DNA of 22,189 nucleotides from a virus. Its lineage: Duplodnaviria > Heunggongvirae > Uroviricota > Caudoviricetes. Below are positions 1 through 22,189 of the stretch, piece after piece. The translations under genes were made by a program, and so were the position numbers. Below the pieces are notes generated by a model. It saw only the letters and a program-made list of their open reading frames with translations, was not told the origin of the DNA and searched no databases. The stretch is taken from the IMG/VR virus record IMGVR_UViG_2687453530_000003, one strand, 5' to 3'. Numbering within the stretch: the stretch's first letter is position 1; each line of letters opens with the position of its first letter.

Positions 1-584
1 ATCATCCACCCAACTTAACTGAAACCAGGATGAAGTATATGCATATAAAGTTCACTTTGCCAAACTTCAGTATAAAAAACCACATAAAAAATAGGGTGTG
101 ATAAAAAATACCGTAACAATAAAGCAAAGGATTATAAATTCCGTTACAGTTACAAATGATACTCAAGAAACAATTCCTTAGGAAAAACTTATTTACAGCC
201 AATAAGTAAGACACTTATATGATATCAAGTTTTCATAAAACATAACTAGGCTAAATAGCTGCGCCTAATACCGCTACACTTTTGCCAGCCCATGTTTGCC
301 TCCGGGTATTGACCCCTTCTCTACGCAACTTCAGTTCCCACCACCAACTTTGCGGCAGCTTTGTAGGATCAATGTCTAAAAGAATAATGGTGACCGATAA
401 GAAAACAACTGAATAACTGCAAATTTTCGCTCAAAACCTTCCTGTCAGATCCATAGCGAATCAAGTGCTGAATGTCACAGTATCGAACAGAAAACAGTGA
501 CGATCTAACCCTTCAAGAATATTCTACGATTGTTCTGTTTAGGAAAAGCAAGGCGGGAAGTCGGGAGATAAGTCATTGATAAAG

Positions 585-645
585 TGGCGGAGAGAGGGGG
601 ATTTGAACCCCCGGTAGAGTTGCCCCTACTCCGGTTTTCGAGACC
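585..645 (-). tRNA. 3' fragment (~61 nt) of a tRNA-Ser (serU/CGA-like) gene; the 5' half is absent, so this is an att-core-like remnant, not a functional tRNA
   Basis: Reverse complement reads GGTCTCGAAAACCGGAGTAGGGGCAACTCTACCGGGGGTTCAAATCCCCCTCTCTCCGCCA, matching the anticodon-stem-to-CCA end of E. coli tRNA-Ser(CGA) as recalled; the sequence 5' of it does not match the tRNA. Confidence 0.6.
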
Positions 646-1388
646 GATGATACAGAGTCGAAAAATCAAAGAGTTAAAAATTTTTCTTGGAATAAATGTC
701 TTAAAATCGTACACGAAAAATCAATGAATTACATAACATTAAAGAAGAATATTCCAAGCCTTCTTGAGGCTACCACCTGTTTTCAGGTGTCATTCAGACG
801 TGATTTGCCCCAGATTGGGAAAGCACGCTTTTTTCTCAGCTATCGTCCTCTTATTTTGCCGTTACATTTCTTTTTGCACTCTAATGATTAATTTACAATA
901 ATAATATCGGTAATTATTGAGTAATAATAAATTGGTTATTGCAAATGTAATTTAATTCCATCTTCGCGTTATATTCCAATCTTTAATCTCCGCATGGAAC
1001 AAGTTGCATGCGTGACTATATTAAGACAACTTATAACCACCAAAACATTTGCTTTGCAAGCAAAAACATTGACCATTGACTCTAAGAAAATTCCGATCTA
1101 TTGTTAGGGTCATCAAAGTTACTTAACAGTATTCCGAAATGAAAATACAAAGCAAGCTAATTGTCTTATTAAACATTATCATTGCATTTATATTATTTGA
1201 GCTTTTAGCTCAAAAATTTGGTTTGAGTACATTATTTTAAAGCAAGATAAACAATATCGGGCACTCTAGTTTTTATAATTAACAATTAAACGTCCATAAA
1301 ATGTTATTTACTTTTCTTCGCTATTGTCATATCTTAATATAGTGGCTTACGCCACTCTACTTTCATCACATTTTGTACGTTTATGTAC

Positions 1389-1419
1389 TCGCCATGAAGC
1401 TCTTTCATGGCGATTTTTT
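1389..1419 (+). terminator. Rho-independent terminator: perfect 10-bp stem, 5-nt loop, T6 tract
   Basis: tcgccatgaa-gctct-ttcatggcga followed by tttttt, read directly. Confidence 0.5.
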
Positions 1420-1685
1420 ATTCTTAATCCAAGAACATACTCCCTACCTATAGCAAAATCACTTTTTGAACAAAAGAATAACGTATTTAGGTAATCATTA
1501 CGAATTTACCCTATAGGTGCTACTGGCCATTCAATATCCGGTGCAGTTGTTGTATTAACACGGTTCAGCAACACCCGATACTTTTTCCAGGCTTCCAGCA
1601 ACGAGTTTTCTTCCTCCGTTGCGATCTCCAGCCCAACAACAGTCTGAACGTACCGGGAACAGCCTCCTTCAGGGCTTGAAGGATA

Positions 1686-3938: not shown

Positions 3939-4380
3939 TTCCGGTCAGCACATCGTGCGTTTTCCCCTTATTGTCAGTTACGCGGATATAATCCCCGGAA
4001 AAAGTCGACACACGGCTGTAAGCCACACCCGCCATCGCATACGCGCTGAACCATTCATTCACGCGCACAGACGGCCCCGCCATTACGCTGAACCAGCGGT
4101 TACGAACGGAATCTTCATGCCAGCGGGTATCGCTGTAACGGGTCAGCTGACGATTCTTGTCTCCTGCATAGCTGAATGACGTCACCATCCCCAGTGTGTC
4201 CGTAAACTCATAACGGTATTTCACGTTAATCCCGTTCAGATCATCACTGCCGGGAACGTTCGTCCGGGCATGAAGATACCCCGCGCTCAGCGTGGACTGA
4301 TGTTCAGACGCCCATGCAGGCGCACCGGATACGGCCAGACAAATGGCTGCGGACAAAATGGCGGCATAAAGTTTACGCAT
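3883..4380 (-). CDS. lom: Lom/Ail-family outer-membrane protein, C-terminally truncated (165 aa versus ~206 in lambda; lacks the terminal aromatic beta-barrel signature)
   Basis: Signal peptide MRKLYAAILSAAICLAVSGAPAWA and near-identity to lambda Lom through ...NTSLAWGA, then divergence and a stop. Confidence 0.8.
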   Translation of the reverse strand: MRKLYAAILSAAICLAVSGAPAWASEHQSTLSAGYLHARTNVPGSDDLNGINVKYRYEFTDTLGMVTSFSYAGDKNRQLTRYSDTRWHEDSVRNRWFSVMAGPSVRVNEWFSAYAMAGVAYSRVSTFSGDYIRVTDNKGKTHDVLTGSDDGRHSNTSLAWGADLH

Positions 4381-4446
4381 AATTACCTCTCGCTTTTCTG
4401 CAATAAAAAAGGCGTCATTTCTGACGCCCGTTCTGGGTTATAAAAT

Positions 4447-6401
<1,955 letters not shown>

Positions 6402-6427
<26 letters not shown>

Positions 6428-6947
6428 TCAGCAACCCCGGTATCAGTTCATCCAGCGCGGCTGCTTTGTTCATGGCTTTGATGATATCCCGTTTCAGGAA
6501 ATCAACATGTCGGTTTTCCAGTTCCGGAAAACGCCGCTGCACCGACAGGGGGATCCCGTCGAGAATACTGGCAATTTCACCTGCGATCCGCGACAACACG
6601 AAAGTACAGAATGCGGTTTCCACCACTTCAGCGGAGTCTCTGGCATTCTTCAGTTCCTGTGCGTCGGCCTGCGCACGCGTAAGTCGATGGCGTTCGTACT
6701 CAATAGTCCCTGGCTGGAGATCTGCCTCGCTGGCCTGCCGCAGTTCTTCAACCTCCCGGCGCAGCTTTTCGTTCTCAATTTCAGCATCCCTTTCGGCATA
6801 CCATTTTATGACGGCGGCAGAGTCATAAAGCACCTCATTACCCTTGCCACCGCCTCGCAGAACGGGCATTCCCTGTTCCTGCCAGTTCTGAATGGTACGG
6901 ATACTCGCACCGAAAATGTCAGCCAGCTGCTTTTTGTTGACTTCCAT
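6402..6947 (-). CDS. nu1: Terminase small subunit Nu1 (NohD-like)
   Basis: 181 aa, MEVNKKQLADIFGASIRTIQNWQEQGMPV..., the winged-HTH N-terminus of lambda Nu1. Confidence 0.9.
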
Positions 6948-7124
6948 TGTTCATTCCACGGACAAAAACAGAGAAAGGAAACGACAGAGGCCAAAAAGCT
7001 CGCTTTCAGCACCTGTCGCTTCCTTTCTTTTCAGAGGGTATTTTAAATAAAAACATTAAGTTATGACGAAGAAGAACGGAAACGCCTTAAACCGGAAAAT
7101 TTTCATAAATAGCGAAAACCCGCG

Positions 7125-7136
7125 AGGTCGCCGCCC
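7125..7136. other. cosN cohesive-end site; the flanking region 6948-7124 would be cosB
   Basis: AGGTCGCCGCCC is the reverse complement of the lambda 12-nt cohesive end GGGCGGCGACCT, flanked by the lambda left-end sequence CTCGCGGGTTTTCGCTATTTATGAAAATTTTCCGG on the minus strand. Confidence 0.8.
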
Positions 7137-7335
7137 CGTAACCTGTCGGATCGCCGGAAAGGACCCGCAAAATGATAATAATTATCATCTGCATGTCACA
7201 ACGTGCATCTACGCCATCAAACCACGTCAAATAATCAATTATGACGCAGGTATCGTATTAATTGATCTGCATCAACTTAACGTAAAAACAACTTCAGACA
7301 ATACAAATCAGCGACACTGAATACGGGGCAACCTC

Positions 7336-7530
7336 ATGTCAACGAAGAACAGAACCCGCAGAACAACAACCCGCAACATCCGCTTTCCTAACCAAATGAT
7401 TGAACAAATTAACATCGCTCTTGAGCAAAAAGGGTCCGGGAATTTCTCAGCCTGGGTCATTGAAGCCTGCCGTCGGAGACTAACGTCAGAAAAGAGAGCA
7501 TATACATCAATTAAAAGTGATGAAGAATGA
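7336..7530 (+). CDS. ylcI: Small basic hypothetical protein of the lambdoid right-end region (YlcI-like)
   Basis: 64-aa ORF at the same relative position as in DLP12/lambda; identity by recall only. Confidence 0.5.
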   Translation: MSTKNRTRRTTTRNIRFPNQMIEQINIALEQKGSGNFSAWVIEACRRRLTSEKRAYTSIKSDEE

Positions 7531-7694
7531 ACATCCCGCGTTCTTCCCTCCGAACAGGACGATATTGTAAATTCACTTAATTACGAGGGCATTGCAGTAA
7601 TTGAGTTGCAGTTTTACCACTTTCCTGACAGTGACAGACTGCGTGTTGGCTCTGTCACAGGCTAAATAGTTTGAATGATTAGCAGTTATGGTGA

Positions 7695-7901
7695 TCAGTC
7701 AACCACCAGGGAATAATCCTTCATATTATTATCGTGCTTCACCAACGCTGCCTCAATTGCTCTGAATGCTTCCAGAGACACCTTATGTTCTATACATGCA
7801 ATTACAACATCAGGGTAACTCATAGAAATGGTGCTATTAAGCATATTTTTTACACGAATCAGATCCACGGAGGGATCATCAGCAGATTGTTCTTTATTCA
7901 T
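7695..7901 (-). CDS. ybcW: Hypothetical protein (YbcW-like)
   Basis: 68-aa ORF; position and size match DLP12 ybcW as recalled. Confidence 0.5.
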
Positions 7902-8186
7902 TTTGTCGCTCCATGCGCTTGCTCTTCATCTAGCGGTTAAAATATTACTTCAAATCTTTCTGTATGAAGATTTGAGCACGTTGGCCTTACATACATCTGT
8001 CGGTTGTATTTCCCTCCAGAATGCCAGCAGGACCGCACTTTGTTACGCAACCAATACTATTAAGTGAAAACATTCCTAATATTTGACATAAATCATCAAC
8101 AAAACACAAAGAGGTCAGACCAGATTGAAACGATAAAAACGATAATGCAAACTACGCGCCCTCGTATCACATGGAAGGTTTTACCA

Positions 8187-8597
8187 ATGGCTCAGGTTGC
8201 CATTTTTAAAGAAATATTCGATCAAGTGCGAAAAGATTTAAACTGTGAATTGTTTTATTCTGAACTAAAACGTCACAACGTCTCACATTATATTTACTAT
8301 CTAGCCACAGATAATATTCACATCGTGTTAGAAAACGATAACACCGTGTTAATAAAAGGACTTAAAAAGGTTGTAAATGTTAAATTCTCAAGAAACACGC
8401 ATCTTATAGAAACGTCCTATGATAGGTTGAAATCAAGAGAAATCACATTTCAGCAATACAGGGAAAATCTTGCTAAAGCAGGAGTTTTCCGATGGGTTAC
8501 AAATATCCATGAACATAAAAGATATTACTATACCTTTGATAATTCATTACTATTTACTGAGAGCATTCAGAACACTACACAAATCTTTCCACGCTAA
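8187..8597 (+). CDS. ybcV: Hypothetical protein of unknown function (YbcV-like, DUF1398-like)
   Basis: Start chosen at [10 protein letters not shown], preceded by GGAAGG; the longer ORF start at 8064 has no ribosome-binding site. Confidence 0.6.
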
Positions 8598-8887
8598 ATC
8601 ATAACGTCCGGTTTCTTCCGTGTCAGCACCGGGGCGTTGGCATAATGCAATACGTGTACGCGCTAAACCCTGTGTGCATCGTTTTTAATTATTCCCGGAC
8701 ACTCCCGCAGAGAAGTTCCCCGTCAGGGCTGTGGACATAGTTAATCCGGGAATACAATGACGATTCATCGCACCTGACATACATTAATAAATATTAACAA
8801 TATGAAATTTCAACTCATTGTTTAGGGTTTGTTTAATTTTCTACACATACGATTCTGCGAACTTCAAAAAGCATCGGGAATAACACC

Positions 8888-9181
8888 ATGAAAAAAATGC
8901 TACTCGCTACTGCGCTGGCCCTGCTTATTACAGGATGTGCTCAACAGACGTTTACTGTTCAAAACAAACCGGCAGCAGTAGCACCAAAGGAAACCATCAC
9001 CCATCATTTCTTCGTTTCTGGAATTGGGCAGAAGAAAACTGTCGATGCAGCCAAAATTTGTGGCGGCGCAGAAAATGTTGTTAAAACAGAAACCCAGCAA
9101 ACATTCGTAAATGGATTGCTCGGTTTTATTACTTTAGGCATTTATACTCCGCTGGAAGCGCGTGTGTATTGCTCACAATAA
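8888..9181 (+). CDS. bor: Bor lipoprotein (serum-resistance / Iss family)
   Basis: 97 aa, lipobox LLITGC, convergent with the lysis genes as in lambda and DLP12. Confidence 0.85.
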   Translation: MKKMLLATALALLITGCAQQTFTVQNKPAAVAPKETITHHFFVSGIGQKKTVDAAKICGGAENVVKTETQQTFVNGLLGFITLGIYTPLEARVYCSQ

Positions 9182-9212
9182 TTGCATGAGTTGCCCATCG
9201 ATATGGGCAACT

Positions 9213-9674
9213 CTATCTGCACTGCTCATTAATATACTTCTGGGTTCCTTCCAGTTGTTTTTGCATAGTGATCAGCCTCTCTCTGAGGGTGAAATAATCC
9301 CGTTCAGCGGTGTCTGCCAGTCGGGGGGAGGCTGCATTATCCACGCCGGAGGCGGTGGTGGCTTCACGCACTGACTGACAGACTGCTTTGATGTGCAACC
9401 GACGACGACCAGCGGCAACATCATCACGCAGAGCATCATTTTCAGCTTTAGCATCAGCTAACTCCTTCGTGTATTTTGCATCGAGCGCAGCAACATCACG
9501 CTGACGCATCTGCATGTCAGTAATTGCCGCGTTCGCCAGCTTCAGTTCTCTGGCATTTTTGTCGCGCTGGGCTTTGTAGGTAATGGCGTTATCACGGTAA
9601 TGATTAACAGCCCATGACAGGTAGACGATGATGCAGATAACCAGAGCGGAGATAATCGCGGTTACTCTGTTCAT
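9213..9674 (-). CDS. Rz: Rz i-spanin
   Basis: [17 protein letters not shown]... near-identical to lambda Rz; start set at the internal Met of the 157-aa ORF. Confidence 0.9.
9272..9454 (-). CDS. Rz1: Rz1 o-spanin lipoprotein, embedded in Rz in the +1 frame
   Basis: 60 aa with lipobox VVVGC and a PPPPP tract, identical in layout to lambda Rz1. Confidence 0.85.
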
Positions 9675-10168
9675 TGCTGACCCCACAAACAGATTTCACG
9701 CTCAATCTCACGACGAGTCATGAGACCTTTCCATTGCTTACCGCCAGCATATGTCCAGCGACGTAGCTGATCACATGCGCCTTTGATATCGCCCTGGTTT
9801 ATTTTGCGAAGAAGCGTCGATGTTCTGAAATTGCCAGCACCCACGTTGTAAACGAATGAGTAAAGAGCGCCGCGCGTTGTTTCCGGTATATCGACTTTGA
9901 TGTACGGGTTAATTTGTCTGGCGACAGTGGCAAGGTCTTTATTCAAGAGTGCTTTGCATTCTGCTTTGGTATACGTTTTACCGAGCATGATGTCTTTTCC
10001 GGTGTGTCCGTGACATACAGTCCATACGCCAACGATATCTTTGTATGGTACGTAGCTGACACCTTCCAGACCATCGTTACCACTTGGGCCAGTAATTAAC
10101 ACTGATGCTATAGCAATTGCTCCGCCACCAATAGCAGCAGCAACGGCTTTTCGTAATGATGGAGGCAT
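9671..10168 (-). CDS. R: SAR endolysin (T4-lysozyme fold, phage 21 R type)
   Basis: 165 aa; N-terminal weakly hydrophobic Gly/Ala-rich signal-anchor-release segment [18 protein letters not shown] followed by a lysozyme domain. Confidence 0.9.
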
Positions 10169-10383
10169 TATTCACCTCTCGCAGCCTTGCGCTTATCTTC
10201 TTTAATCTTGAAATAAAGGTTTGTCAGGTACGTCAGCAGGCCAAATACCAGGCTACCCAGCACACCTATTGCTGCCCACTGTGAGGGCGTGACTTTATCG
10301 AGCAGCTGTAAAAACCAGTAACCGGCACTACCTGCTGAGGTGCCATAGGCGACACCCGTTGTTAACTTATCCATGGATTTCAT
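10168..10383 (-). CDS. S: Pinholin S21 (71 codons, with dual start MKSMDK giving antiholin and holin)
   Basis: [26 protein letters not shown]...[17 protein letters not shown] matches the phage 21 pinholin; the 5' extension of the ORF is non-coding. Confidence 0.85.
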
Positions 10384-10512
10384 AACCCCACCTCGCAGAC
10401 AAAGCGGGTGTAAATTGAGGGAATACAACGTATCGCAAAAAAGCAGAAACGTAACAGACTCGGAGTCAGTGAATAACTCAGGTATTGGGTTATCAGCTAA
10501 TATCGAGACTCA

Positions 10513-10543
10513 AAAAATGGAAAAACCCGCTCGACGGCGGGTT
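10513..10543 (-). terminator. Intrinsic terminator on the minus strand, candidate tR'-like late-leader terminator upstream of S
   Basis: Minus strand reads AAACCCGC-CGTCGA-GCGGGTTTTTCCATTTTTTG: 8-bp GC-rich stem plus U-tract. Confidence 0.45.
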
Positions 10544-10972
10544 TAAGCTGTGTGACGAAGTAACCACTCTTAACAGCATAACCAATTTTTTACGTACGTA
10601 AACCACTAAATGATATTTGCGAGAATGCTACCGAGTATTGAAAACACCACTACAAATACATAAGAAAATCTCAACAAATAACCAATAAATAATTTCCAGT
10701 GTTATTTTTAGCCGGTTTAAATTGAACCTTCAAATTATAGAGCACTTATAAATAACAGCCGTTAATATAAATTGGCTAATAGATTTATTTTTATTCAGCC
10801 AAGAGCCATGAATAGGATTCGATAGAAAAAAGTTCAGATAAAAATAGAGATCTACTTCACAAATCAAACGAGAAACTAAAACTTACATCTTGAAATAATC
10901 ACATTGATTAGATGAATATTTATCGCGCAGTGACATCATTTTTTAATAATAGTTCAAAAAAAAGGGCTCACG

Positions 10973-12055
10973 ATGAAAAAATTAACAGTGGCAATTTCTG
11001 CTGTAGCTGCATCAGTACTGATGGCGATGTCTGCTCAGGCAGCTGAAATTTATAATAAAGACAGTAACAAGCTGGATCTGTACGGGAAAGTTAATGCCAA
11101 GCACTACTTCTCCTCTAATGATGCAGATGATGGTGATACTACTTATGCCCGTCTTGGCTTCAAAGGTGAAACCCAAATCAACGATCAACTGACTGGTTTC
11201 GGTCAGTGGGAATATGAATTCAAAGGCAACCGCGCTGAATCTCAAGGTTCCTCCAAAGATAAAACCCGTCTTGCCTTCGCTGGCCTGAAATTCGGTGACT
11301 ACGGCTCCATCGATTACGGCCGTAACTACGGTGTAGCATACGACATCGGTGCATGGACCGACGTTCTGCCAGAATTCGGTGGCGATACCTGGACCCAAAC
11401 AGATGTATTCATGACTGGTCGCACCACAGGTGTTGCAACTTATCGTAACAACGACTTCTTTGGTCTGGTTGATGGCCTGAACTTTGCAGCTCAGTATCAG
11501 GGCAAAAATGACCGAAATGAAGTAACTGAAGCTAATGGCGATGGTTTCGGTTTCTCAACTACTTATGAGTATGAAGGATTCGGCGTGGGTGCAACCTATG
11601 CTAAATCTGATCGCACTAATAATCAGGTTATCTACGGTAACAACGGTCTGAATGCTTCTGGTCAAAATGCTGAAGTATGGGCAGCTGGTCTGAAATATGA
11701 TGCGAACAACATCTATCTGGCCACCACCTATTCTGAAACCCAGAACATGACTGTTTTTGGTAATAACCATATTGCCAACAAAGCACAAAACTTCGAAGCT
11801 GTTGCACAATATCAGTTCGACTTCGGCCTGCGTCCATCCGTTGCTTACCTGCATTCTAAAGGAAAAGACTTGGGTGTTTGGGGTGATCAGGACCTGGTTG
11901 AATATGTTGATGTAGGTGCAACCTATTACTTCAACAAAAATATGTCCACTTTTATTGACTACAAAATCAACCTGATTGATAAGAGCGATTTCACGAAAGC
12001 ATCTGGCGTTGCTACCGATGATATCGTTGCTGTAGGTATGGTTTACCAGTTCTAA
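10973..12055 (+). CDS. nmpC: General porin of the OmpC/OmpF family, phage-borne NmpC/Lc type (lysogenic-conversion moron)
   Basis: 360 aa, signal peptide [30 protein letters not shown]..., C-terminal ...VAVGMVYQF; sits on the strand opposite the lysis genes as in DLP12. Confidence 0.9.
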
Positions 12056-12190
12056 TTTGATTACTAAAAGATATGTTGTGGGAGGCTTTGCCTCCCCAAC
12101 ATATAAGTGGCTCCCTCAAGCCACTTCCTTTAGAAGCACAACCTTGCTTCTAACTATATAAACCTTCTGTTATATATTACCCTTTATTTT

Positions 12191-12217
12191 TGGGGGCGTT
12201 TCAACGCCCCATTTTTA
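12191..12217 (+). terminator. Rho-independent terminator after the porin gene, last of a series of four hairpins
   Basis: GGGGCG-TTTCAA-CGCCCC followed by ATTTTT; upstream hairpins AGTGGCT-N6-AGCCACT and AGAAGCA-N6-TGCTTCT. Confidence 0.6.
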
Positions 12218-12243
12218 ATAACTTTTAGTAAATAATTGGCGTA

Positions 12244-12465
12244 TTAATTAGAGTTATTAACAACGATATCCATCTCTAACCGGATATCTAATGCCATTAA
12301 CATCCCTTCAATTATGCCCTCAGCCTTTTGTAACCTTTTCCCGATATAACCATCAGAGCAGCAATGCTTACCTGCCAGTGACATGAATGTCATACCGACT
12401 ATATAATAATCTACTAATAAATCGTGCAAATCGCTGTTGTTCTTTTTCAGACGGGCCATGCACAA
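12244..12465 (-). CDS. Hypothetical 73-aa ORF, possibly a remnant of the sieB region; weak
   Basis: ORF only; located where sieB would lie relative to orf28 and ral, but the frame and length do not match. Confidence 0.25.
12379..12407 (+). promoter_or_regulatory. Candidate sigma-70 promoter (TGACAT-17 bp-TATAAT) reading into orf28-ral-ea10-cIII-kil-exo
   Basis: Hexamers and spacing read directly from the sequence; no experimental support. Confidence 0.3.
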
Positions 12466-12500
12466 TCTTTACTACCGCAATCCACTATTTAAGGTGATAC

Positions 12501-12587
12501 ATGGAAGAAGAATTTGAAGAGTTCGAAGAGCATCCTCAGGATGTGATGGAACAATACCAGGACTATCCGTATGACTACGACTATTGA
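12501..12587 (+). CDS. orf28: orf28-like small acidic protein
   Basis: MEEEFEEFEEHPQDVMEQYQDYPYDYDY, 28 aa, overlapping the ral start as in lambda. Confidence 0.55.
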   Translation: MEEEFEEFEEHPQDVMEQYQDYPYDYDY

Positions 12588-12771
12588 TAAAAATCAATGG
12601 TGTGGACAATTCAAGCGATGCAATGGATGCAAGCTGCAATCGGAATGCATGGTTAAGCCTGAAGAAATGTTTCCTGTAATGGATGATGGGAAATATGTCG
12701 ATAAATGGGCAATACGAACGACGGCAATGATTGCCAGAGAACTTGGTAAACAGAACAACAAAGCTGCCTGA
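12571..12771 (+). CDS. ral: Ral restriction-alleviation protein
   Basis: 66 aa, MTTTIDKNQWCGQFKRCNGCKLQSECMVKPEEMFPV..., essentially lambda Ral. Confidence 0.9.
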   Translation: MTTTIDKNQWCGQFKRCNGCKLQSECMVKPEEMFPVMDDGKYVDKWAIRTTAMIARELGKQNNKAA

Positions 12772-12953
12772 TAGTGGCCTTTATTTTTGGCATAAATAAC
12801 AGAATAAACACTGCACTGTGTATTCATTCCAACGAGTGAATACACGGAGCAATGTCGCTCGTAACTAAACAGGAGCCGACTTGTTCTGATTATTGGAAAT
12901 CTTCTTTGCCCTCCAGTGTGAGGGCGATTTTTTATCTATGAGGATATGAATAG

Positions 12954-13322
12954 ATGTCAAACATCAAAAAATACATCATTGATTACGACTGGAAAGCATC
13001 AATAGAAATTGAAATCGATCATGACGTAATGACAGAGGAAAAACTTCACCAGATTAATAATTTCTGGTCAGACTCTGAATACCGACTCAATAAACACGGC
13101 TCTGTATTAAATGCTGTATTAATCATGCTGGCGCAACATGCTCTGCTTATAGCAATTTCAAGCGACTTAAATGCATATGGTGTTGTGTGTGAGTTCGACT
13201 GGAATGATGGAAATGGTCAGGAAGGATGGCCTCCAATGGATGGTAGCGAAGGAATAAGAATTACCGATATCGATACATCAGGAATATTTGATCCAGATGA
13301 TATGACTATCAAAGCCGCCTGA
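12954..13322 (+). CDS. ea10: Ea10-like protein
   Basis: 122 aa at the lambda ea10 position between ral and cIII. Confidence 0.7.
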   Translation: MSNIKKYIIDYDWKASIEIEIDHDVMTEEKLHQINNFWSDSEYRLNKHGSVLNAVLIMLAQHALLIAISSDLNAYGVVCEFDWNDGNGQEGWPPMDGSEGIRITDIDTSGIFDPDDMTIKAA

Positions 13323-13394
13323 GCGCGGCGTTACCGCATACCAATAACGCTTCACTCGAGGCGTTTTTCGTTATGTATAAATAAGGAGCACACC

Positions 13395-13559
13395 ATGCAA
13401 TATGCCATTGCAGGGTGGCCTGTTGCTGGCTGCCCTTCCGAATCTTTACTTGAACGAATCACCCGTAAATTACGTGACGGATGGAAACGCCTTATCGACA
13501 TACTTAATCAGCCAGGAGTCCCAAAAAATGGATCAAACACTTATGGCTATCCAGACTAA
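13395..13559 (+). CDS. cIII: cIII, FtsH inhibitor
   Basis: 54 aa, MQYAIAGWPVAGCPSESLLERITRKLRDGWKRLIDILNQPGVPKNGSNTYGYPD. Confidence 0.9.
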   Translation: MQYAIAGWPVAGCPSESLLERITRKLRDGWKRLIDILNQPGVPKNGSNTYGYPD

Positions 13560-13680
13560 ATTCACTATCGCCACTTTTATTGGCGATGAAAAGATGTTTC
13601 GTGAGGCCGTCGACGCTTATAAAAAATGGATATTAATACTGAAACTGAGATCAAGCAAAAGCATTCACTACCCCCCTTAA
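13528..13680 (+). CDS. kil: Kil, host cell-division inhibitor (50 codons here; the stop appears shifted by the adjacent deletion junction)
   Basis: MDQTLMAIQTKFTIATFIGDEKMFREAVDAYKKWILILKLRSSKSIH..., overlapping the cIII end as in lambda. Confidence 0.8.
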   Translation: MDQTLMAIQTKFTIATFIGDEKMFREAVDAYKKWILILKLRSSKSIHYPP

Positions 13681-13873
13681 CGATGAAACCATGCAGGAGA
13701 TTAACACTCTGCTGATCGCCCTGGATAAAACATGGGATGACGACTTATTGCCGCTCTGTTCCCAGATATTTCGCCGCGACATTCGCGCATCGTCAGAACT
13801 GACACAGGCCGAAGCAGTGAAAGCTCTTGGATTCCTTAAACAGAAAGCCACTGAGCAGAAGGTGGCAGCATGA
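13626..13873 (+). pseudogene. gam: gam-bet deletion remnant: the first ~15 codons of gam joined out of frame to the last ~60 codons of bet
   Basis: ATGGATATTAATACTGAAACTGAGATCAAGCAAAAGCATTCACTA (gam start) abuts AACGATGAAACCATGCAGGAGATTAACACTCTGCTGATCGCCCTGGATAAAACATGGGATGAC (bet 3' end); the bet C-terminus ...[15 protein letters not shown] precedes exo. Confidence 0.8.
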
Positions 13874-14550
13874 CACCGGACATTATCCTGCAGCGTACCG
13901 GGATCGACGTGAGAGCTGTCGAACAGGGGGATGATGCATGGCACAAATTACGGCTCGGCGTCATCACCGCTTCAGAAGTTCACAACGTGATAGCAAAGCC
14001 CCGCTCAGGAAAGAAGTGGCCTGACATGAAAATGTCCTACTTCCACACCCTGCTGGCTGAGGTTTGCACCGGTGTGGCTCCGGAAGTTAATGCTAAGGCG
14101 CTGGCCTGGGGAAAACAGTACGAGAACGACGCCAGAACCCTGTTTGAATTCACTTCCGGCGTGAATATTACTGAATCCCCGATCATCTATCGCGACGAAA
14201 ATATGCGCACCGCCTGCTCTCCCGATGGTTTATGCAGTGACGGCAACGGCCTTGAACTGAAATGCCCGTTTACCTCCCGGGATTTCATGAAATTCCGGCT
14301 CGGTGGTTTCGAGGCAATAAAATCGGCTTACATGGCCCAGGTGCAGTACAGCATGTGGGTGACGCGAAAAGATGCCTGGTACTTTGCCAACTATGACCCG
14401 CGCATGAAGCGTGAAGGCCTGCATTATGTCGTGATTGAGCGGAATGAAAAGTACATGGCGAGTTTTGACGAGATGGTGCCGGAGTTCATCGAAAAAATGG
14501 ACGAGGCACTGGCTGAAATTGGTTTTGTATTTGGGGAGCAATGGCGATGA
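13870..14550 (+). CDS. exo: Exo, lambda 5'-3' exonuclease (Red alpha), intact
   Basis: 226 aa, [40 protein letters not shown]...GFVFGEQWR. Confidence 0.95.
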
Positions 14551-14732
14551 CGCATCCTCACGATAATATCCGGGTAGGCGCAATCACTTTCGTCTACTCC
14601 GTTACAAAGCGAGGCTGGGTATTTCCCGGCCTTTCTGTAATCCGAAATCCCCTGAAAGCACAGCGGCTGGCTGAGGAGATAAATAATAAATGGGGGGGGG
14701 CTGTATGCACAAAGCATCTCCCGTTGAGTTAA
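14547..14732 (+). CDS. orf60a: orf60a-like protein
   Basis: [31 protein letters not shown]...; ATGA overlap with the exo stop. Confidence 0.7.
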
Positions 14733-14896
14733 GAACGAGTATCGAGATGGCACATAGCCTCGCTCAAATTGGAGTCAGGTTTGTGCCAATACCAGTAGAA
14801 ACAGACGAAGAATTTCACACGTTAGCCGCATCCCTTTCACAAAAGCTGGAAATGATGGTGGCGAAAGCAGAAGCAGATGAGAGAGACCAGGTATGA
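14705..14896 (+). CDS. orf63: orf63-like protein
   Basis: [23 protein letters not shown]..., 63 aa. Confidence 0.7.
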   Translation: MHKASPVELRTSIEMAHSLAQIGVRFVPIPVETDEEFHTLAASLSQKLEMMVAKAEADERDQV

Positions 14897-14976
14897 CAAC
14901 CACTGAATGCATTTTTCTGGCAGCGGGCTTCATATTCTGTGTGCTTATGCTTGCCGACATGGGACTTGTTCAATGA
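14893..14976 (+). CDS. Candidate 27-aa single-pass membrane peptide, translationally coupled between orf63 and orf61
   Basis: MTTTECIFLAAGFIFCVLMLADMGLVQ; its ATG overlaps the orf63 TGA (ATGA) and its TGA overlaps the orf61 ATG (ATGA). Confidence 0.35.
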   Translation: MTTTECIFLAAGFIFCVLMLADMGLVQ

Positions 14977-15188
14977 CACCTCAGCAGGAAAACGCCCTTC
15001 GCAGCATTGCCCGTCAGGCTAATTCTGAAATCAAAAAAGCCAGACAGCAGTTTCCGGATAAAAACGTCGATGACATTTGCCGTAGCGTACTGAAGAAGCA
15101 CCGCGAAACGGTAACGCTGATGGGATTCACACCGACTCATTTAAGCCTGGCAATCGGCATGTTAAACGGCGTCTTTAAGGAACGATGA
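14973..15188 (+). CDS. orf61: orf61-like protein
   Basis: MTPQQENALRSIARQANSEIKKARQQFPDKNVDD...; start chosen at the coupled ATG rather than the upstream out-of-context Met. Confidence 0.65.
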   Translation: MTPQQENALRSIARQANSEIKKARQQFPDKNVDDICRSVLKKHRETVTLMGFTPTHLSLAIGMLNGVFKER

Positions 15189-15286
15189 ACATGAAAAGCA
15201 AAATCATCAGGGAGCTACAGGCTCCTTTTTTATTATTCGCATTCACCCTCAAGCGTATTAACCAACAATTCAGGGATTAATGGAAG

Positions 15287-15508
15287 ATGGCAGACATCAT
15301 TGATTCAGCATCAGAAATTGAAGAATTACAGCGCAACACAGCAATAAAAATGCGTCGTCTGAACTACCAGACTGTATCTGCCACTCATTGTTGTGAGTGT
15401 GGCGATCCGATAGATGAACGAAGACGCCTGGTCGTTCAGGGTTGTCGGACTTGTGCAAGTTGCCAGGAGGATCTGGAGCTTATCAGTAAACAGAGAGGTT
15501 CGAAGTGA
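15287..15508 (+). CDS. orf73: TraR/DksA-family C4 zinc-finger protein (lambda Orf73-like RNA polymerase secondary-channel binder)
   Basis: 73 aa with C-x-x-C...C-x-x-C (CECGDPIDERRRLVVQGCRTCASC). Confidence 0.8.
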   Translation: MADIIDSASEIEELQRNTAIKMRRLNYQTVSATHCCECGDPIDERRRLVVQGCRTCASCQEDLELISKQRGSK

Positions 15509-15912
15509 GCGAAATTAACTCTCAGGCACTGCGTGAAGCGGCAGAGAAAGCCGGTGAAGATAAGTGGCAGGCTAAAAAAATAAATGGTGATTTTTTCGTT
15601 ATTCGTCACGGTAGTTATACAAGACAGCATGGCTACACATCGAATCAACCCATTGCGGAGATTGATTGTAAGCCAGTCCGGGATTTTGTTGCCAAGGCTA
15701 ATCCGGCTACCGTGCTGGAATTACTGGATGAACTGGAAGCAGCAAAAAAGCGCATTGCAGAACTGGAAGCGCGGGAAATACTGCTCCCGGAACGTAGCAG
15801 CATGCTTCATCGAACAGATTTTCACGATGATTACCAAACGGTAATGGCATACAAAGTTTCTGAAGTCATCGATGCAATCCGCGCTACTGGCATTCGCATC
15901 AAAGGAGAGTGA
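15505..15912 (+). CDS. ea22: Ea22-like protein, short variant with coiled-coil centre
   Basis: GTG start overlapping the orf73 stop; N-terminus MSEINSQALREAAE and C-terminus ...GIRIKGE resemble lambda Ea22 termini as recalled. Confidence 0.5.
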   Translation: MSEINSQALREAAEKAGEDKWQAKKINGDFFVIRHGSYTRQHGYTSNQPIAEIDCKPVRDFVAKANPATVLELLDELEAAKKRIAELEAREILLPERSSMLHRTDFHDDYQTVMAYKVSEVIDAIRATGIRIKGE

Positions 15913-15913
15913 G

Positions 15914-16669
15914 ATGATTCACTACCACGGTGGGCCTATTACTCCTGATACGTGCGCAATGAGAGCATGGAAAGGGCGACATGCGTTTATCAGTTTTGCG
16001 CATTCAGGCCAGATCAATCTCGCGGCTGAATACTGTCAGTCGTTCGCGCTGGACAACGGTGCATTCACCGCCTGGAAAGCAGCTGGCAAAAACAAAATCG
16101 ACTGGAGCGATTACTACGAGTTTGTTGCTCGCTGGAAGAATCACCCAGGATTCGATTTTGCCATTATCCCGGATATTATTGATGGCGGAGAGGAGGAAAA
16201 TGATGCGCTTCTGAATGAGTGGCCTCACGGAAAACTAGCTGGCGTTCCAGTGTGGCACATGAATGAAAGTGACGCGCGATTTATTCATTTGTGCAATGAG
16301 TTTCCGCGAGTGGCTATCGGTAGTTGTGGCGACTATGACGTAAAGCGCCCAACTCTTGCGGTAGCCAGAATGAAAGACCTGATTCGTCACATTGTTGATG
16401 GGCATGGTCAGCCGGTTACGAAACTACATGGATTGCGCATGTTAAATCCGCTGATATTCACAAAATTACCCTTAGCCAGCGCAGATAGTACGAACGTCGC
16501 TCGAAACATCGGTATTGATAAAGCCTGGTCTGGGGCTTATGCACCTGCAAGTAAAGAGACACGCGCAGCATTAATGGTAGAACGGATTGAGGCACACAAT
16601 AGCCCTGGTTCTCTTGCGTATTGTGAACAACGCGACCGCTTTGAAATGCAATTGCAACTAGCAGTTTAA
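15914..16669 (+). CDS. Queuine tRNA-ribosyltransferase-like (TGT/DpdA-family) protein; candidate 7-deazaguanine DNA transglycosylase
   Basis: 251 aa after a strong ribosome-binding site (AAAGGAGAG); segments FALDNGAF, IIPDIIDGG, VAIGSCGDY, KLHGLRMLNP resemble TGT-fold motifs as recalled; no C-x-C-x-x-C...H zinc motif. Confidence 0.5.
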   Translation: MIHYHGGPITPDTCAMRAWKGRHAFISFAHSGQINLAAEYCQSFALDNGAFTAWKAAGKNKIDWSDYYEFVARWKNHPGFDFAIIPDIIDGGEEENDALLNEWPHGKLAGVPVWHMNESDARFIHLCNEFPRVAIGSCGDYDVKRPTLAVARMKDLIRHIVDGHGQPVTKLHGLRMLNPLIFTKLPLASADSTNVARNIGIDKAWSGAYAPASKETRAALMVERIEAHNSPGSLAYCEQRDRFEMQLQLAV

Positions 16670-16679
16670 GGACTAACAA

Positions 16680-17477
16680 ATGACCACTATTACCAAAGAA
16701 CGTATTGAATTGTTCATTAAAAATCCGCTTGAAAACGGGCTTACTCGTGGCGAACAAATGGAACTGGCACGAATTGCACTGGCATCACTGGAACGCGAAC
16801 TGATTCGCCACGAGCATGCCAAATGGTCTGACTCCACATTTGGCTGCGTTGGCCCCATTGGTCCACTGAAACACCTCTCAAAAGAGGCTCTGGAAGCCGC
16901 AGCCGAACCAGACGATCTCAGCGAGTGGGCTGATATGCATTTCCTGTTGTGGGATGCACAGCGCCGTGCTGGCATCAGCGATGCTGAAATTACCGCTGCT
17001 ATGGAAGATAAATTGAAGATCAACATGGAGCGCCAGTGGCCTGAACCAAAAGATGGTGAGCCTCGCTTGCACATTAAAGAACCCGGCAACTCTCCGGTAA
17101 TTCCGGATGGTTTATCCACGGTATGCGCTGAGGCTTATCAGGTTGTAGGAGTTATGGCAGATGCGCTTGGTGTATTCGGTGATGCAGCAGTACAGAAAGT
17201 TCTGGATAACCTGTCACAGCAAAAACTTGTTCACAGAGATGTGCTGCCGTTCTCGCTTCCGGTGACTCCGGATGGTTGGATAAGCTGTAGTGAGCGAATG
17301 CCGAAAGAAACGGGTGACATTATTGTTGTTTCGGATGGCATTGTAATGTCCGGGATTTCTTATTCTCGTCGTGACGGGTTCTATATAGCCGCATTGGAGT
17401 ACGACGACGATGAGCCAATTGGCGGTGTAACCCACTGGATGCCTCTACCAGAACCGCCTCGATTAAAGGAGCTATAA
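16680..17477 (+). CDS. Two-domain protein: N-terminal DUF550-like (MazG-like dATP/dGTP pyrophosphohydrolase family) plus C-terminal DUF551-like domain
   Basis: 265 aa; family assignment by recalled similarity to prophage DUF550/DUF551 proteins. Confidence 0.5.
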   Translation: MTTITKERIELFIKNPLENGLTRGEQMELARIALASLERELIRHEHAKWSDSTFGCVGPIGPLKHLSKEALEAAAEPDDLSEWADMHFLLWDAQRRAGISDAEITAAMEDKLKINMERQWPEPKDGEPRLHIKEPGNSPVIPDGLSTVCAEAYQVVGVMADALGVFGDAAVQKVLDNLSQQKLVHRDVLPFSLPVTPDGWISCSERMPKETGDIIVVSDGIVMSGISYSRRDGFYIAALEYDDDEPIGGVTHWMPLPEPPRLKEL

Positions 17478-17780
17478 TAGTGAACTATTATATCTATTTG
17501 TATTAAAAGAGTTTTTATAAAATAAATCTCCCAAAGCATGTAAAAACACTGTTAATCTTAACGTGTGTGAAACGTGAAGAGAGGTGTTGAAATGAGCATT
17601 CATGATTTGTGTGAAGATCAAGAGCAATGGGCTATGCAGACCCTTATGGGATCAGGAGTTCTTGCAAGGTGCAGAATCCATAACGATGTAATTTTAGACA
17701 GCGGAAATGATGCTTCTTCTGCTTATAAATTAGGAACTTACCTATATCAAAAAGATAATAGCTGCAACTTATTCAATACT

Positions 17781-17785
17781 CTTAC
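17781..17785. repeat. IS2 target-site duplication, left copy (CTTAC)
   Basis: Identical 5-mer immediately flanks both IS2 ends. Confidence 0.85.
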
Positions 17786-17796
17786 TGGATTTGCCC

Positions 17797-18702
17797 CTAT
17801 ATTTCCAGACATCTGTTATCACTTAACCCATTACAAGCCCGCTGCCGCAGATATTCCCGTGGCGAGCGATAACCCAGCGCACTATGCGGATGCCATTCGT
17901 TATAATGCTCGAACGCCTCTGCAAGGTTCTTTGCTGCCGTTAACCCGTCTGGTTTGGGCATGATACTGATGTAGTCACGCTTTATCGTTTTCACGAAGCT
18001 CTCTGCTATTCCGTTACTCTCCGGACTCCGCACCGCCGTGTTCTTCGGTTCAAGTCCCAACATCCGGGCGAACTGGCGTGTTTCATTAGCCCGGTAGCAT
18101 GAACCATTATCCGTCAGCCACTCCACTGGAGACGACGGAAGATCGTTGCCGAAGCGGCGTTCCACCGCTCCCAGCATGACGTCCTGTACTGTTTCACTGT
18201 TGAAGCCGCCGGTAGTGACCGCCCAGTGCAGTGCCTCACGATCACAGCAGTCCAGCGCGAACGTGACACGCAGTCTCTCTCCGTTATCACAGCAGAACTC
18301 GAACCCGTCAGAGCACCATCGCTGATTGCTTTCTTTCACGGCCACTCTGCCTGTATGTGCCCGTTTCGATGGCGGTACAGCAGGTTTTCGCTCAAGCAAC
18401 AGCGCATTCTGGCGCATGATCCGGTAAACACGTTTGGCATTGATCGCAGGCATACCATCAAGTTCTGCCTGTCTGCGAAGCAGCGCCCATACCCGACGAT
18501 AACCATACGTGGGCAGCTCTCCGATAACATGGTGTATACGGAGAAGCACATCCGTATCATCAGTGTGACGACTGCGGCGGCCATCCATCCAGTCATCGGT
18601 TCGTCTGAGAATGACGTGCAACTGCGCACGCGACACCCGGAGACAACGGCTGACTAAGCTTACTCCCCATCCCCGGGCAATAAGGGCGCGTGCGCTATCC
18701 AC
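17797..18702 (-). CDS. insD: IS2 transposase OrfB (InsD; DDE catalytic domain, expressed as an OrfAB fusion by -1 frameshift)
   Basis: 301 aa, [34 protein letters not shown].... Confidence 0.9.
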
Positions 18703-19025
18703 TTTTTTGCCCGTCCATATTCAACGGCTTCTTTGAGGAGTTCATTTTCCATCGTTTTCTTGCCGAGCAGGCGCTGGAGTTCTTTAATCTGCTTCATGGC
18801 GGCAGCAAGTTCAGAGGCAGGAACAACCTGTTCTCCGGCGGCGACAGCAGTAAGACTTCCTTCCTGGTATTGCTTACGCCAGAGAAATAACTGGCTGGCT
18901 GCTACACCATGTTGCCGGGCAACGAGGGAGACCGTCATCCCCGGTTCAAAGCTCTGCTGAACAATTGCGATCTTTTCCTGTGTGGTACGCCGTCTGCGTT
19001 TCTCCGGCCCTAAGACATCAATCAT
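18660..19025 (-). CDS. insC: IS2 OrfA (InsC; HTH DNA-binding regulator)
   Basis: [53 protein letters not shown].... Confidence 0.9.
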
Positions 19026-19116
19026 CTGTTCTCCAATGACTAGTCTAAAAACTAGTATTAAGACTATCACTTATTTAAGTGATACTGGTTGTCTGGAGAT
19101 TCAGGGGGCCAGTCTA

Positions 19117-19121
19117 CTTAC
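19117..19121. repeat. IS2 target-site duplication, right copy (CTTAC)
   Basis: Matches 17781-17785. Confidence 0.85.
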
Positions 19122-19504: not shown

Positions 19505-19723
19505 ATGTACTTGACACTTCAGGAGTGGAACGCACGCCAGCGACGCCCAAGAAGCCTTGAAACAGTTCGTCGATGGGTACGCGAGTGCAGGATATTCCCT
19601 CCTCCGGTTAAGGATGGAAGAGAGTATCTGTTCCACGAATCAGCGGTAAAGGTTGACTTAAATCGACCAGTAACAGGTAGCCTTTTGAAGAGGATCAGAA
19701 ATGGGAAGAAGGCGAAGTCATGA
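19505..19723 (+). CDS. xis: Excisionase Xis
   Basis: 72 aa, MYLTLQEWNARQRRPRSLETVRRWVRECRIFPPPVKDGREYLFHESAVKVDLNRP.... Confidence 0.95.
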   Translation: MYLTLQEWNARQRRPRSLETVRRWVRECRIFPPPVKDGREYLFHESAVKVDLNRPVTGSLLKRIRNGKKAKS

Positions 19724-20771
19724 GCGCCGGGATTTACCCCCTAACCTTTATATAAGAAACAATGGATATTACTGCTACAGGGACCCAAGGACGGGTAAAG
19801 AGTTTGGATTAGGCCGAGACAGGCGAATCGCAATCACTGAAGCTATACAGGCCAACATTGAGTTATTTTCAGGACACAAACACAAGCCTCTGACAGCGAG
19901 AATCAACAGTGATAATTCCGTTACGTTACATTCATGGCTTGATCGCTACGAAAAAATCCTGGCCAGCAGAGGAATCAAGCAGAAGACACTCATAAATTAC
20001 ATGAGCAAAATTAAAGCAATAAGGAGGGGTCTGCCTGATGCTCCACTTGAAGACATCACCACAAAAGAAATTGCGGCAATGCTCAATGGATACATAGACG
20101 AGGGCAAGGCGGCATCAGCCAAGTTAATCAGATCAACACTGAGCGATGCATTCCGAGAGGCTATAGCTGAAGGCCATATAACAACAAACCCGGTCGCAGC
20201 CACTCGCGCTGCAAAATCAGAGGTAAGGAGATCAAGACTTACGGCTGACGAATACCTGAAAATTTATCAAGCAGCAGAATCATCACCATGTTGGCTTAGA
20301 CTTGCAATGGAACTGGCTGTTGTTACCGGGCAGCGAGTTGGTGATTTATGCGAAATGAAGTGGTCTGATATCGTAGATGGATATCTTTATGTCGAGCAAA
20401 GCAAAACAGGCGTAAAAATTGCCATCCCAACAGCATTGCATGTTGATGCTCTCGGAATATCAATGAAGGAAACACTTGATAAATGCAAAGAGATTCTTGG
20501 CGGAGAAACCATAATTGCATCTACTCGTCGCGAACCGCTTTCATCCGGCACAGTATCAAGGTATTTTATGCGCGCACGAAAAGCATCAGGTCTTTCCTTC
20601 GAAGGGGATCCGCCTACCTTTCACGAGTTGCGCAGTTTGTCTGCAAGACTCTATGAGAAGCAGATAAGCGATAAGTTTGCTCAACATCTTCTCGGGCATA
20701 AGTCGGACACCATGGCATCACAGTATCGTGATGACAGAGGCAGGGAGTGGGACAAAATTGAAATCAAATAA
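19701..20771 (+). CDS. int: Integrase Int (tyrosine recombinase), lambda type, full length
   Basis: 356 aa, MGRRRSHERRDLPPNLYIRNNGYYCYRDPRTGKEFGLGRDRRIAITEAIQANIELFSG...; overlaps xis as in lambda. Confidence 0.95.
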   Translation: MGRRRSHERRDLPPNLYIRNNGYYCYRDPRTGKEFGLGRDRRIAITEAIQANIELFSGHKHKPLTARINSDNSVTLHSWLDRYEKILASRGIKQKTLINYMSKIKAIRRGLPDAPLEDITTKEIAAMLNGYIDEGKAASAKLIRSTLSDAFREAIAEGHITTNPVAATRAAKSEVRRSRLTADEYLKIYQAAESSPCWLRLAMELAVVTGQRVGDLCEMKWSDIVDGYLYVEQSKTGVKIAIPTALHVDALGISMKETLDKCKEILGGETIIASTRREPLSSGTVSRYFMRARKASGLSFEGDPPTFHELRSLSARLYEKQISDKFAQHLLGHKSDTMASQYRDDRGREWDKIEIK

Positions 20772-20859
20772 TGATTTTATTTTGACTGATAGTGACCTGT
20801 TCGTTGCAACAAATTGATAAGCAATGCTTTTTTATAATGCCAACTTAGTATAAAAAAGC
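20772..20859. other. attL: attL: P' arm plus 15-bp lambda core (core at 20845-20859, TTAGTATAAAAAAGC, reverse complement of GCTTTTTTATACTAA)
   Basis: Core read directly; the P' arm sequence ATGATTTTATTTTGACTGATAGTGACCTGTTCGTTGCAACAAATTGATAAGCAATGC matches lambda attP P' as recalled. Confidence 0.85.
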
Positions 20860-20905
20860 AGGCTTCAACGGATTCATTTTTCTATTTCATAGCCCGGAGC
20901 AACCT

Positions 20906-22189
20906 GTGAACACATTTTCAGTTTCCCGTCTGGCGCTGGCATTGGCTTTTGGCGTGACGCTGACCGCCTGTAGCTCAACCCCGCCCGATCAACGTCCTTC
21001 TGATCAAACCGCGCCTGGTACCTCTTCTCGCCCGATTCTGTCGGCAAAAGAAGCGCAGAATTTCGATGCTCAACACTATTTTGCATCCCTGACACCAGGT
21101 GCAGCAGCGTGGAATCCTTCCCCGATTACCCTGCCTGCGCAACCTGACTTTGTTGTCGGCCCGGCGGGCACTCAAGGTGTAACGCATACCACGATTCAGG
21201 CGGCGGTAGATGCGGCAATTATCAAGCGTACCAACAAGCGCCAGTATATTGCCGTGATGCCTGGTGAGTATCAGGGAACGGTATATGTCCCTGCCGCTCC
21301 GGGTGGAATTACTCTGTACGGTACAGGTGAAAAACCGATTGATGTGAAGATTGGGCTTTCCCTTGATGGTGGCATGAGCCCTGCCGACTGGCGTCACGAC
21401 GTCAACCCGCGCGGCAAATATATGCCAGGTAAACCAGCGTGGTATATGTACGATAGCTGCCAGAGCAAACGCAGCGACAGTATCGGTGTTCTCTGCTCTG
21501 CGGTCTTCTGGTCACAAAACAATGGCCTGCAACTGCAAAATCTGACCATCGAAAACACGCTGGGCGATAGCGTAGATGCAGGTAACCATCCGGCGGTGGC
21601 ACTGCGTACTGATGGTGACCAGGTACAGATTAACAACGTTAACATTCTCGGTCGTCAGAACACCTTCTTTGTCACCAACAGCGGTGTGCAGAACCGTCTG
21701 GAAACGAATCGTCAGCCGCGTACGCTGGTGACCAACAGCTACATTGAAGGGGATGTGGATATCGTTTCTGGTCGCGGCGCAGTGGTGTTCGATAACACCG
21801 AATTCCGCGTGGTGAACTCACGTACTCAGCAAGAAGCGTATGTGTTTGCACCGGCTACGCTGTCCAACATTTACTACGGTTTCCTCGCCGTAAACAGCCG
21901 TTTCAATGCTTTCGGTGATGGTGTGGCGCAACTGGGCCGCTCGCTGGATGTTGATGCCAATACCAACGGTCAGGTGGTGATCCGTGATAGCGCCATCAAC
22001 GAAGGTTTTAACACGGCTAAACCGTGGGCCGATGCGGTGATCTCTAATCGTCCGTTTGCGGGTAATACCGGCAGCGTAGATGATAACGACGAAATACAGC
22101 GCAATCTGAATGACACTAACTACAACCGCATGTGGGAATACAATAACCGCGGCGTGGGTAGTAAAGTGGTTGCAGAGGCGAAGAAGTAA
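20906..22189 (+). CDS. ybhC: Host YbhC, outer-membrane lipoprotein with pectinesterase-like fold (acyl-CoA thioesterase); the chromosomal gene flanking lambda attB
   Basis: 427 aa, GTG start, lipobox LTACS, pectin-lyase-fold beta-helix signature; identity by recall of E. coli YbhC. Confidence 0.9.
   Translation: MNTFSVSRLALALAFGVTLTACSSTPPDQRPSDQTAPGTSSRPILSAKEAQNFDAQHYFASLTPGAAAWNPSPITLPAQPDFVVGPAGTQGVTHTTIQAAVDAAIIKRTNKRQYIAVMPGEYQGTVYVPAAPGGITLYGTGEKPIDVKIGLSLDGGMSPADWRHDVNPRGKYMPGKPAWYMYDSCQSKRSDSIGVLCSAVFWSQNNGLQLQNLTIENTLGDSVDAGNHPAVALRTDGDQVQINNVNILGRQNTFFVTNSGVQNRLETNRQPRTLVTNSYIEGDVDIVSGRGAVVFDNTEFRVVNSRTQQEAYVFAPATLSNIYYGFLAVNSRFNAFGDGVAQLGRSLDVDANTNGQVVIRDSAINEGFNTAKPWADAVISNRPFAGNTGSVDDNDEIQRNLNDTNYNRMWEYNNRGVGSKVVAEAKK

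Follow-up and report, generated by a model that had tools for sequence, protein, structure and literature searches.

The closest described counterparts of this locus are the attL of a lambda lysogen, the related phages ev099 (NC_049953, Radostvirus; 47.2 kb), mEp332 (PV340541; 46.2 kb) and PhiR70_1 (PV340577; 48.8 kb), and the defective prophage DLP12 of Escherichia coli K-12. Our search of the literature on ev099, mEp332 and PhiR70 returned nothing beyond a mention of mEp332. The stretch of DNA that we analysed (the window, 22,189 nucleotides) resembles a lambda lysogen in the layout int-P'-O-B-ybhC, in an identical attL core and P' arm, in its B arm and host location, and in int and xis genes that are 99% identical to those of lambda. 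It differs from lambda in that its prophage has a diverged attR P arm, a changed C site (CAACTTT) and heavy deletion, and in its late, lysis and b regions, which resemble those of DLP12 and ev099. The match to ev099, mEp332 and PhiR70_1 is broader, covering int-xis-attP, the P arm allele and the b-region (with its patE-like regulator, IS fragments and serU fossil) at 98-99.7% identity, as well as a colinear gene order that includes the porin moron and DLP12-like lysis genes. Unlike these phages, however, the window prophage is without about 26 kb of DNA (head/tail, immunity, replication and gam/bet), and has another side tail fibre and ea region, plus an IS2 element. DLP12 is likewise a defective lambdoid remnant with int, the lysis genes essD, rrrD and rzpD, nohD, an nmpC/ompD-type porin, bor, ybcV and ybcW, and these genes of the window prophage carry DLP12 names in RefSeq. 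DLP12, though, occupies the argU tRNA gene and has another integrase, whereas the window element sits at the lambda attB with lambda Int and has both att sites intact.

A motif search of the window identified a single exact copy of the 15-bp common core O of lambda, GCTTTTTTATACTAA, at positions 20845-20859 on the minus strand, which contains the 7-bp overlap TTTATAC. When this region was read in the lambda orientation and compared to the lambda genome (NC_001416), the core was identical at 15/15 positions, and the adjoining 100 nucleotides, running through the P' arm into the 3' end of int, were identical at 100/100. The P' arm (20760-20844, minus strand), which is contiguous with the 3' end of int and overlaps its last codons, was shown by motif scanning to contain a C' core-type site, an IHF H' site (about 20807-20819) and an arm-type Int site (about 20789-20798), all located at the offsets that they have in lambda attP. 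In a megablast comparison with phage genomes, the homology to lambda stopped at window position 20859 (lambda 27724), which is the outer edge of the core, so that the break in phage homology falls exactly at the core. The host side of this junction is that of an unoccupied attB: the 120 nucleotides outside the core were identical (120/120) to the ybhC side of K-12 attB, whose core also matched. This side comprises the B arm and the ybhC upstream region (20860-20905, minus strand), in which the motif scan placed a B core-type site, CTGCTTTTT, and is followed by ybhC itself, the host gene on the gal side of attB (20906-22189, plus strand), as indicated by the open reading frame list, the RefSeq annotation and the K-12 gene order ybhC-attB-ybhB.

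The cognate recombination proteins were also encoded in the window. The int gene (19701-20771, plus strand) ends 73 bp from the attL core and encodes a lambda-type tyrosine integrase of 356 amino acids, 354 of which are identical to those of lambda Int; RefSeq annotates it as a tyrosine-type recombinase/integrase, and its R-K-H-R-H-Y catalytic residues (R212, K235, H308, R311, H333 and Y342) are all present. The xis gene (19505-19723, plus strand), annotated as excisionase, encodes 72 amino acids, of which 71 are shared with lambda Xis. A preliminary description of this DNA had claimed an intact lambda attL beside ybhC, with a core and P' arm identical to those of lambda and a full-length int, and these comparisons bear out each of those points. 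We are highly confident that positions 20760-20870 should be regarded as a genuine attL (B-O-P'), representing the ordinary left junction of a decayed lambda-like prophage at the classic attB.

The same description had stated that no matching right end is present in the window, and our search, which found no second exact core there, agrees with this. It had offered two explanations, namely that attR lies beyond the window or that the right end had been replaced. In the second of these, the window would hold an orphan attL, the right end including attR having been deleted or replaced by unrelated DNA so that the element was permanently locked; the lack of a second exact core, and a leftmost 1.5 kb that is without lambda homology and contains a tRNA-Ser fragment, are both consistent with such a loss. 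We addressed this issue in the 17 genomes in which 80% or more of the window is present, several of which are 100% identical to it and of the APEC O78 type; the E. coli chromosomes with 100% identity include GZM7, NC19, XB2, NC22, EM22-18-53 and APEC O78. The position of attR was taken from genomes that are identical across all 22,189 window bases, not from the window itself, and its coordinates are given here for the GZM7 locus with 12 kb of flank (L001, in which the window occupies 12001-34189). Searching the flank for a second core and for the ybhB/bio side of attB, as had been suggested, located the attR core ACTTTTTTATACTAA at L001 10245-10259, which is 1741-1755 bp to the left of window base 1 and on the same strand as the attL core. 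This core sits 90 bp past ybhB (L001 9678-10154), and the order leftward from the window is a gene for a 247-amino-acid AraC-family regulator, IS3-family fragments, a short gene fragment, ybhB, and then bioA with the other genes of the bio operon.

Both sides of this second junction matched those of a direct-orientation attR (P-O-B'). Its phage side consists of a lambda-type P arm followed by the sib hairpin, and its B' (ybhB) side was identical at 140/140 positions to the right side of K-12 attB. Furthermore, attL and attR together rebuild attB, as the left side of attL, the core and the right side of attR matched K-12 attB at 275/275 positions. The junction of ybhB, attR and the AraC gene was present at 100% identity, and contiguous with window base 1, in 17/17 genomes, demonstrating that the partner attR exists and that the window stops short of it. 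From one core to the other, the prophage spans 22,615 bp. Of the two explanations, the location of attR beyond the window was thus the correct one, and replacement of the right end was unsupported, because attR is present and the DNA to the left is native to related phages. The genomes that carry the window all have, 1.74 kb to its left, an attR complete with core, P arm, sib and an exact B'/ybhB flank, and the DNA that had seemed foreign is native to ev099, mEp332 and PhiR70_1, in which it forms the accessory region; an orphan attL is therefore exceedingly unlikely. What lies immediately left of the window is essentially the arrangement that the preliminary description had named as evidence against its own view, an attR core with a contiguous b-region, except that this b-region is that of the phage's own lineage and not that of lambda. 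One lesson of this locus is that a 22-kb window can cut off a partner att site.

The P arm of attR (L001 10260-10410) was identical to that of lambda at 124/150 positions in an ungapped alignment. A motif scan placed P2 and the IHF sites H1 and H2 at their lambda positions, and the alignment showed that the P1 sequence was kept; the spacer near the core has diverged, and by our own reading the Xis-binding region is conserved as well. Because of this divergence of the P arm, attR is best described as lambda-like, and strictly not as lambda's own. The attR core differs from that of attL by a single G to A change, located outside the 7-bp overlap, and this change yields a C site, CAACTTTTT (CAACTTT), that is a perfect match to the consensus used in the scan. 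The one-base difference between the two cores is as predicted for strand exchange within the overlap, by which the left half of the core is derived from attB in attL, and from the phage in attR. PhiR70_1 has the same A and the same P arm allele, and the P arm identity was 99.6% to PhiR70_1 and 98.1% to mEp332. The P arm of attR is thus a natural attP allele that is common to PhiR70_1 and mEp332; a third variant was found in ev099.

The relationship to these phages continued from the att site into the window. The stretch from sib to the tail-fibre genes (L001 10440-13700, which includes window positions 1-1700) was 99.2-99.3% identical over 3.2 kb to PhiR70_1, ev099 and mEp332, and in ev099 the homologous stretch is placed between the tail fibre assembly gene and attP-int, the position of the lambda b-region. 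The part of this b-region equivalent that lies inside the window (1-1505) begins with the upstream region of the patE-like AraC regulator gene (1-306), which starts just left of base 1. Comparison with K-12 assigned the following positions to 278 bp of captured yodB-serU intergenic host DNA (307-584) and to the 3' 62 nucleotides of serU (585-646), and comparison with SerU-LTIIb assigned positions 647-762 to the arm of a serU-integrating phage; AT-rich non-coding DNA fills the remainder (763-1505). Positions 307-646 were 97.1% identical to K-12 2,043,190-2,043,529, and positions 307-762 were 95.4% identical to the right (attR) end of SerU-LTIIb, a phage integrated at serU whose record has the same order of tail fibre genes, tRNA-Ser pseudogene and yodB. 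ARAGORN detected no complete tRNA in the window, indicating that the Ser sequence is a 3' fragment only, and an Rfam search of the window at gathering thresholds returned only the lambda cIII thermosensor, with no match at the att region or the serU fragment. The preliminary description had depicted this end as unrelated DNA that carried a tRNA-Ser fragment in place of a lambda tail or b-region. The fragment it reported corresponds to the 62 nucleotides of serU, but the DNA is not unrelated and a tail region is not absent, since remnants of tail-fibre, lom and J genes occupy window positions 1686-5380.

The composition of this module could also suggest a composite origin, in which a separate serU-type island, bearing the AraC regulator, the IS fragments and the tRNA-Ser repeat, had inserted into or beside a resident lambda-type prophage. 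The module does have the serU 3' fragment with its host flank, IS3-family fragments and the patE-like gene, and the last of these occurs in an O157-like chromosome as well, where it adjoins another integrase. However, the same module is present at 99.2-99.3% identity inside phage genomes of 46-49 kb, with the same sib/P-arm and tfa junctions, which shows that it was already in the phage lineage and was not a later arrival in the chromosome. A composite origin is accordingly very unlikely, and both a separate island and a replacement that followed integration were rejected as sources of the left-end DNA because the same DNA with the same junctions occurs in three phage genomes. As judged from these matches, the left-end DNA is the native accessory region of the ev099/mEp332/PhiR70_1 lineage and not a replacement, and the tRNA-Ser fragment is best read as a fossil prophage/host junction inside the phage genome and not as a boundary of the present element. 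In the variable b-region, a stretch without lambda homology beside the tail fibre genes is nothing unusual.

We lean towards the view that this b-region has kept, in fossil form and complete, the right junction of a lambdoid prophage once integrated at serU, as a scar of imprecise excision or of recombination between prophages, after which the lineage would have switched to the lambda int/att. If this is true, the serU fossil would be a datable record of a change in integration site by a phage whose cargo included host DNA and a patE-like regulator of acid resistance. The fossil junction is, for all that, only a mildly interesting by-product of an ordinary and already known kind of feature, a textbook lambda attB/attL/attR system.

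The gene for the AraC-family regulator (L001 11257-12000, minus strand; 247 amino acids) lies next to the window, which begins one base after its start codon. The protein was identical at 246/248 positions to one whose gene lies at about 309 kb of an O157-like chromosome; the O-island OI-8 of EDL933 is located near 300 kb. PatE (z0321, in OI-8), an AraC-like protein encoded by a prophage, activates acid-resistance genes (PMC10877973). The regulator beside the window is probably PatE, an identity that we infer and mark by the term patE-like. The module with this regulator was present in 644 complete genomes.

The upstream region of this gene contains the only other match to the core in the window, GGTTTTTTATACTGA at 67-81 on the minus strand, which has two mismatches and an intact TTTATAC overlap. 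With the tolerance of up to two mismatches used in the search, 0.05 such matches are expected by chance per window, and this rarity, together with the kept overlap and the direct orientation relative to the attL core, could be taken to mean that GGTTTTTTATACTGA is a true or secondary right junction that bounds an element of 20.8 kb. Neither a P arm nor a B' arm adjoins it, however, and it lies 67-81 nucleotides upstream of the start codon of the patE-like gene, with which it is conserved in ev099 and PhiR70_1. It also travels with this gene in the O157-like chromosome, where the gene adjoins a different tyrosine integrase, and the genuine attR with its exact host flank is located further left. 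The probability that GGTTTTTTATACTGA bounds the element is thus next to negligible, and it was rejected as an attR or secondary att site because it has no arm sequences and belongs to the patE-like upstream region even where no lambda att is present. It is probably a chance resemblance in an AT-rich upstream region.

Between its two att sites, the prophage proved in local BLAST comparisons to be colinear with ev099 and PhiR70_1 from attR to attL, apart from discrete losses. Genes at the deletion breakpoints are marked as partial in RefSeq. The tail-end remnant (1506-5380, minus strand), delimited by the RefSeq annotation and by breakpoints relative to ev099 and PhiR70_1, comprises a tfa fragment, a side tail fibre of the S74 peptidase type, a lom fragment and a C-terminal J fragment that is fused to a terminase fragment. 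ev099 and PhiR70_1 have a different side tail fibre and a different ea region. The fusion of the J C-terminus to the terminase N-terminus, near position 5380, marks a deletion from J to the large terminase gene that took away about 16.5 kb of head and tail genes. Next to this junction lies a late-region remnant (5380-12463, minus strand; RefSeq) that is colinear with ev099 1747-34 and 47224-42020 and contains the N-terminal large-terminase fragment, nohD/Nu1, the cos region, ylcI, ybcW, ybcV, bor, Rz/R/S, the porin moron and a Q fragment. An intact bor serum-resistance lipoprotein gene was observed at 8888-9181, and the porin moron, which is of the OmpC/OmpD/NmpC type and intact at 360 amino acids, lies at 10973-12055 between the Q fragment and the lysis genes.

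A second deletion, from Q to ral, removed about 8.2 kb that include N, cI, cro, cII, O, P and nin, with its junction at approximately 12463-12803. Beyond it, the early-left (pL) operon remnant (12803-17700, plus strand; RefSeq, colinear with ev099 and PhiR70_1) retains ral, cIII with its thermosensor, kil, a bet fragment, exo and ea genes; a third loss of about 1 kb, comprising gam and part of bet, joined kil to the bet fragment at approximately 13677. The cIII thermoregulator RNA (Rfam Lambda_thermo, RF01804; 13382-13440, 88.5 bits) is intact despite the deletion of pL/N upstream of it. An IS2 element of 1331 bp (17786-19116, minus strand), identified by its terminal inverted repeats, by sequence reads and by its annotated IS2-family transposase, is located upstream of xis and is flanked by a 5-bp target duplication, CTTAC, at 17781-17785 and 19117-19121. 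Three otherwise near-identical genomes matched only 94% of the window, a value that fits the absence of a 1.3-kb element, suggesting that the part missing from them is IS2. Other genomes have extra inserted DNA, as the matching region is about 1.3-2.6 kb longer in them than the window itself.

The colinearity with ev099 shows that, relative to its viable relatives, this prophage has lost genes that are essential for lytic growth, and it is a defective lambdoid prophage that would be expected to be unable to induce, replicate or build virions. The inability to self-induce is suggested by the loss of pL/N and cII and by the presence of IS2 upstream of xis-int, and xis and int are probably poorly expressed. 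The sequence requirements for excision are, however, intact: int, xis and both att sites are present, and attR has kept P2, H1, H2 and the C site. Excision in trans is therefore plausible, and the element could probably still come out given expression of Int and Xis, for instance from a superinfecting phage with a lambda att site.

We conclude with high confidence that a lambda-family phage of the ev099/mEp332/PhiR70_1 type integrated by means of Int at the canonical attB between ybhC and ybhB, an event that produced attL (B-O-P') at ybhC and attR (P-O-B') at ybhB. After integration, the segments from terminase to J and from Q to ral, and gam with part of bet, were lost, and IS2 was gained upstream of xis. 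The survivors are int, xis, both att sites and several accessory genes, namely the porin, bor and the patE-like AraC regulator; this prophage cargo is relevant to APEC strains. With int, xis, attL and attR intact, the remnant may be open to mobilisation or removal in trans.

The junction of int, attL and ybhC was found in 1866 of the 5426 complete E. coli genomes, and that of ybhB and attR in 1919. Roughly one in three complete E. coli genomes thus has a prophage junction at the lambda attB, and the value of the present analysis lies mainly in correct annotation. Where the site is empty, the match ended within the core, which is the expected outcome.
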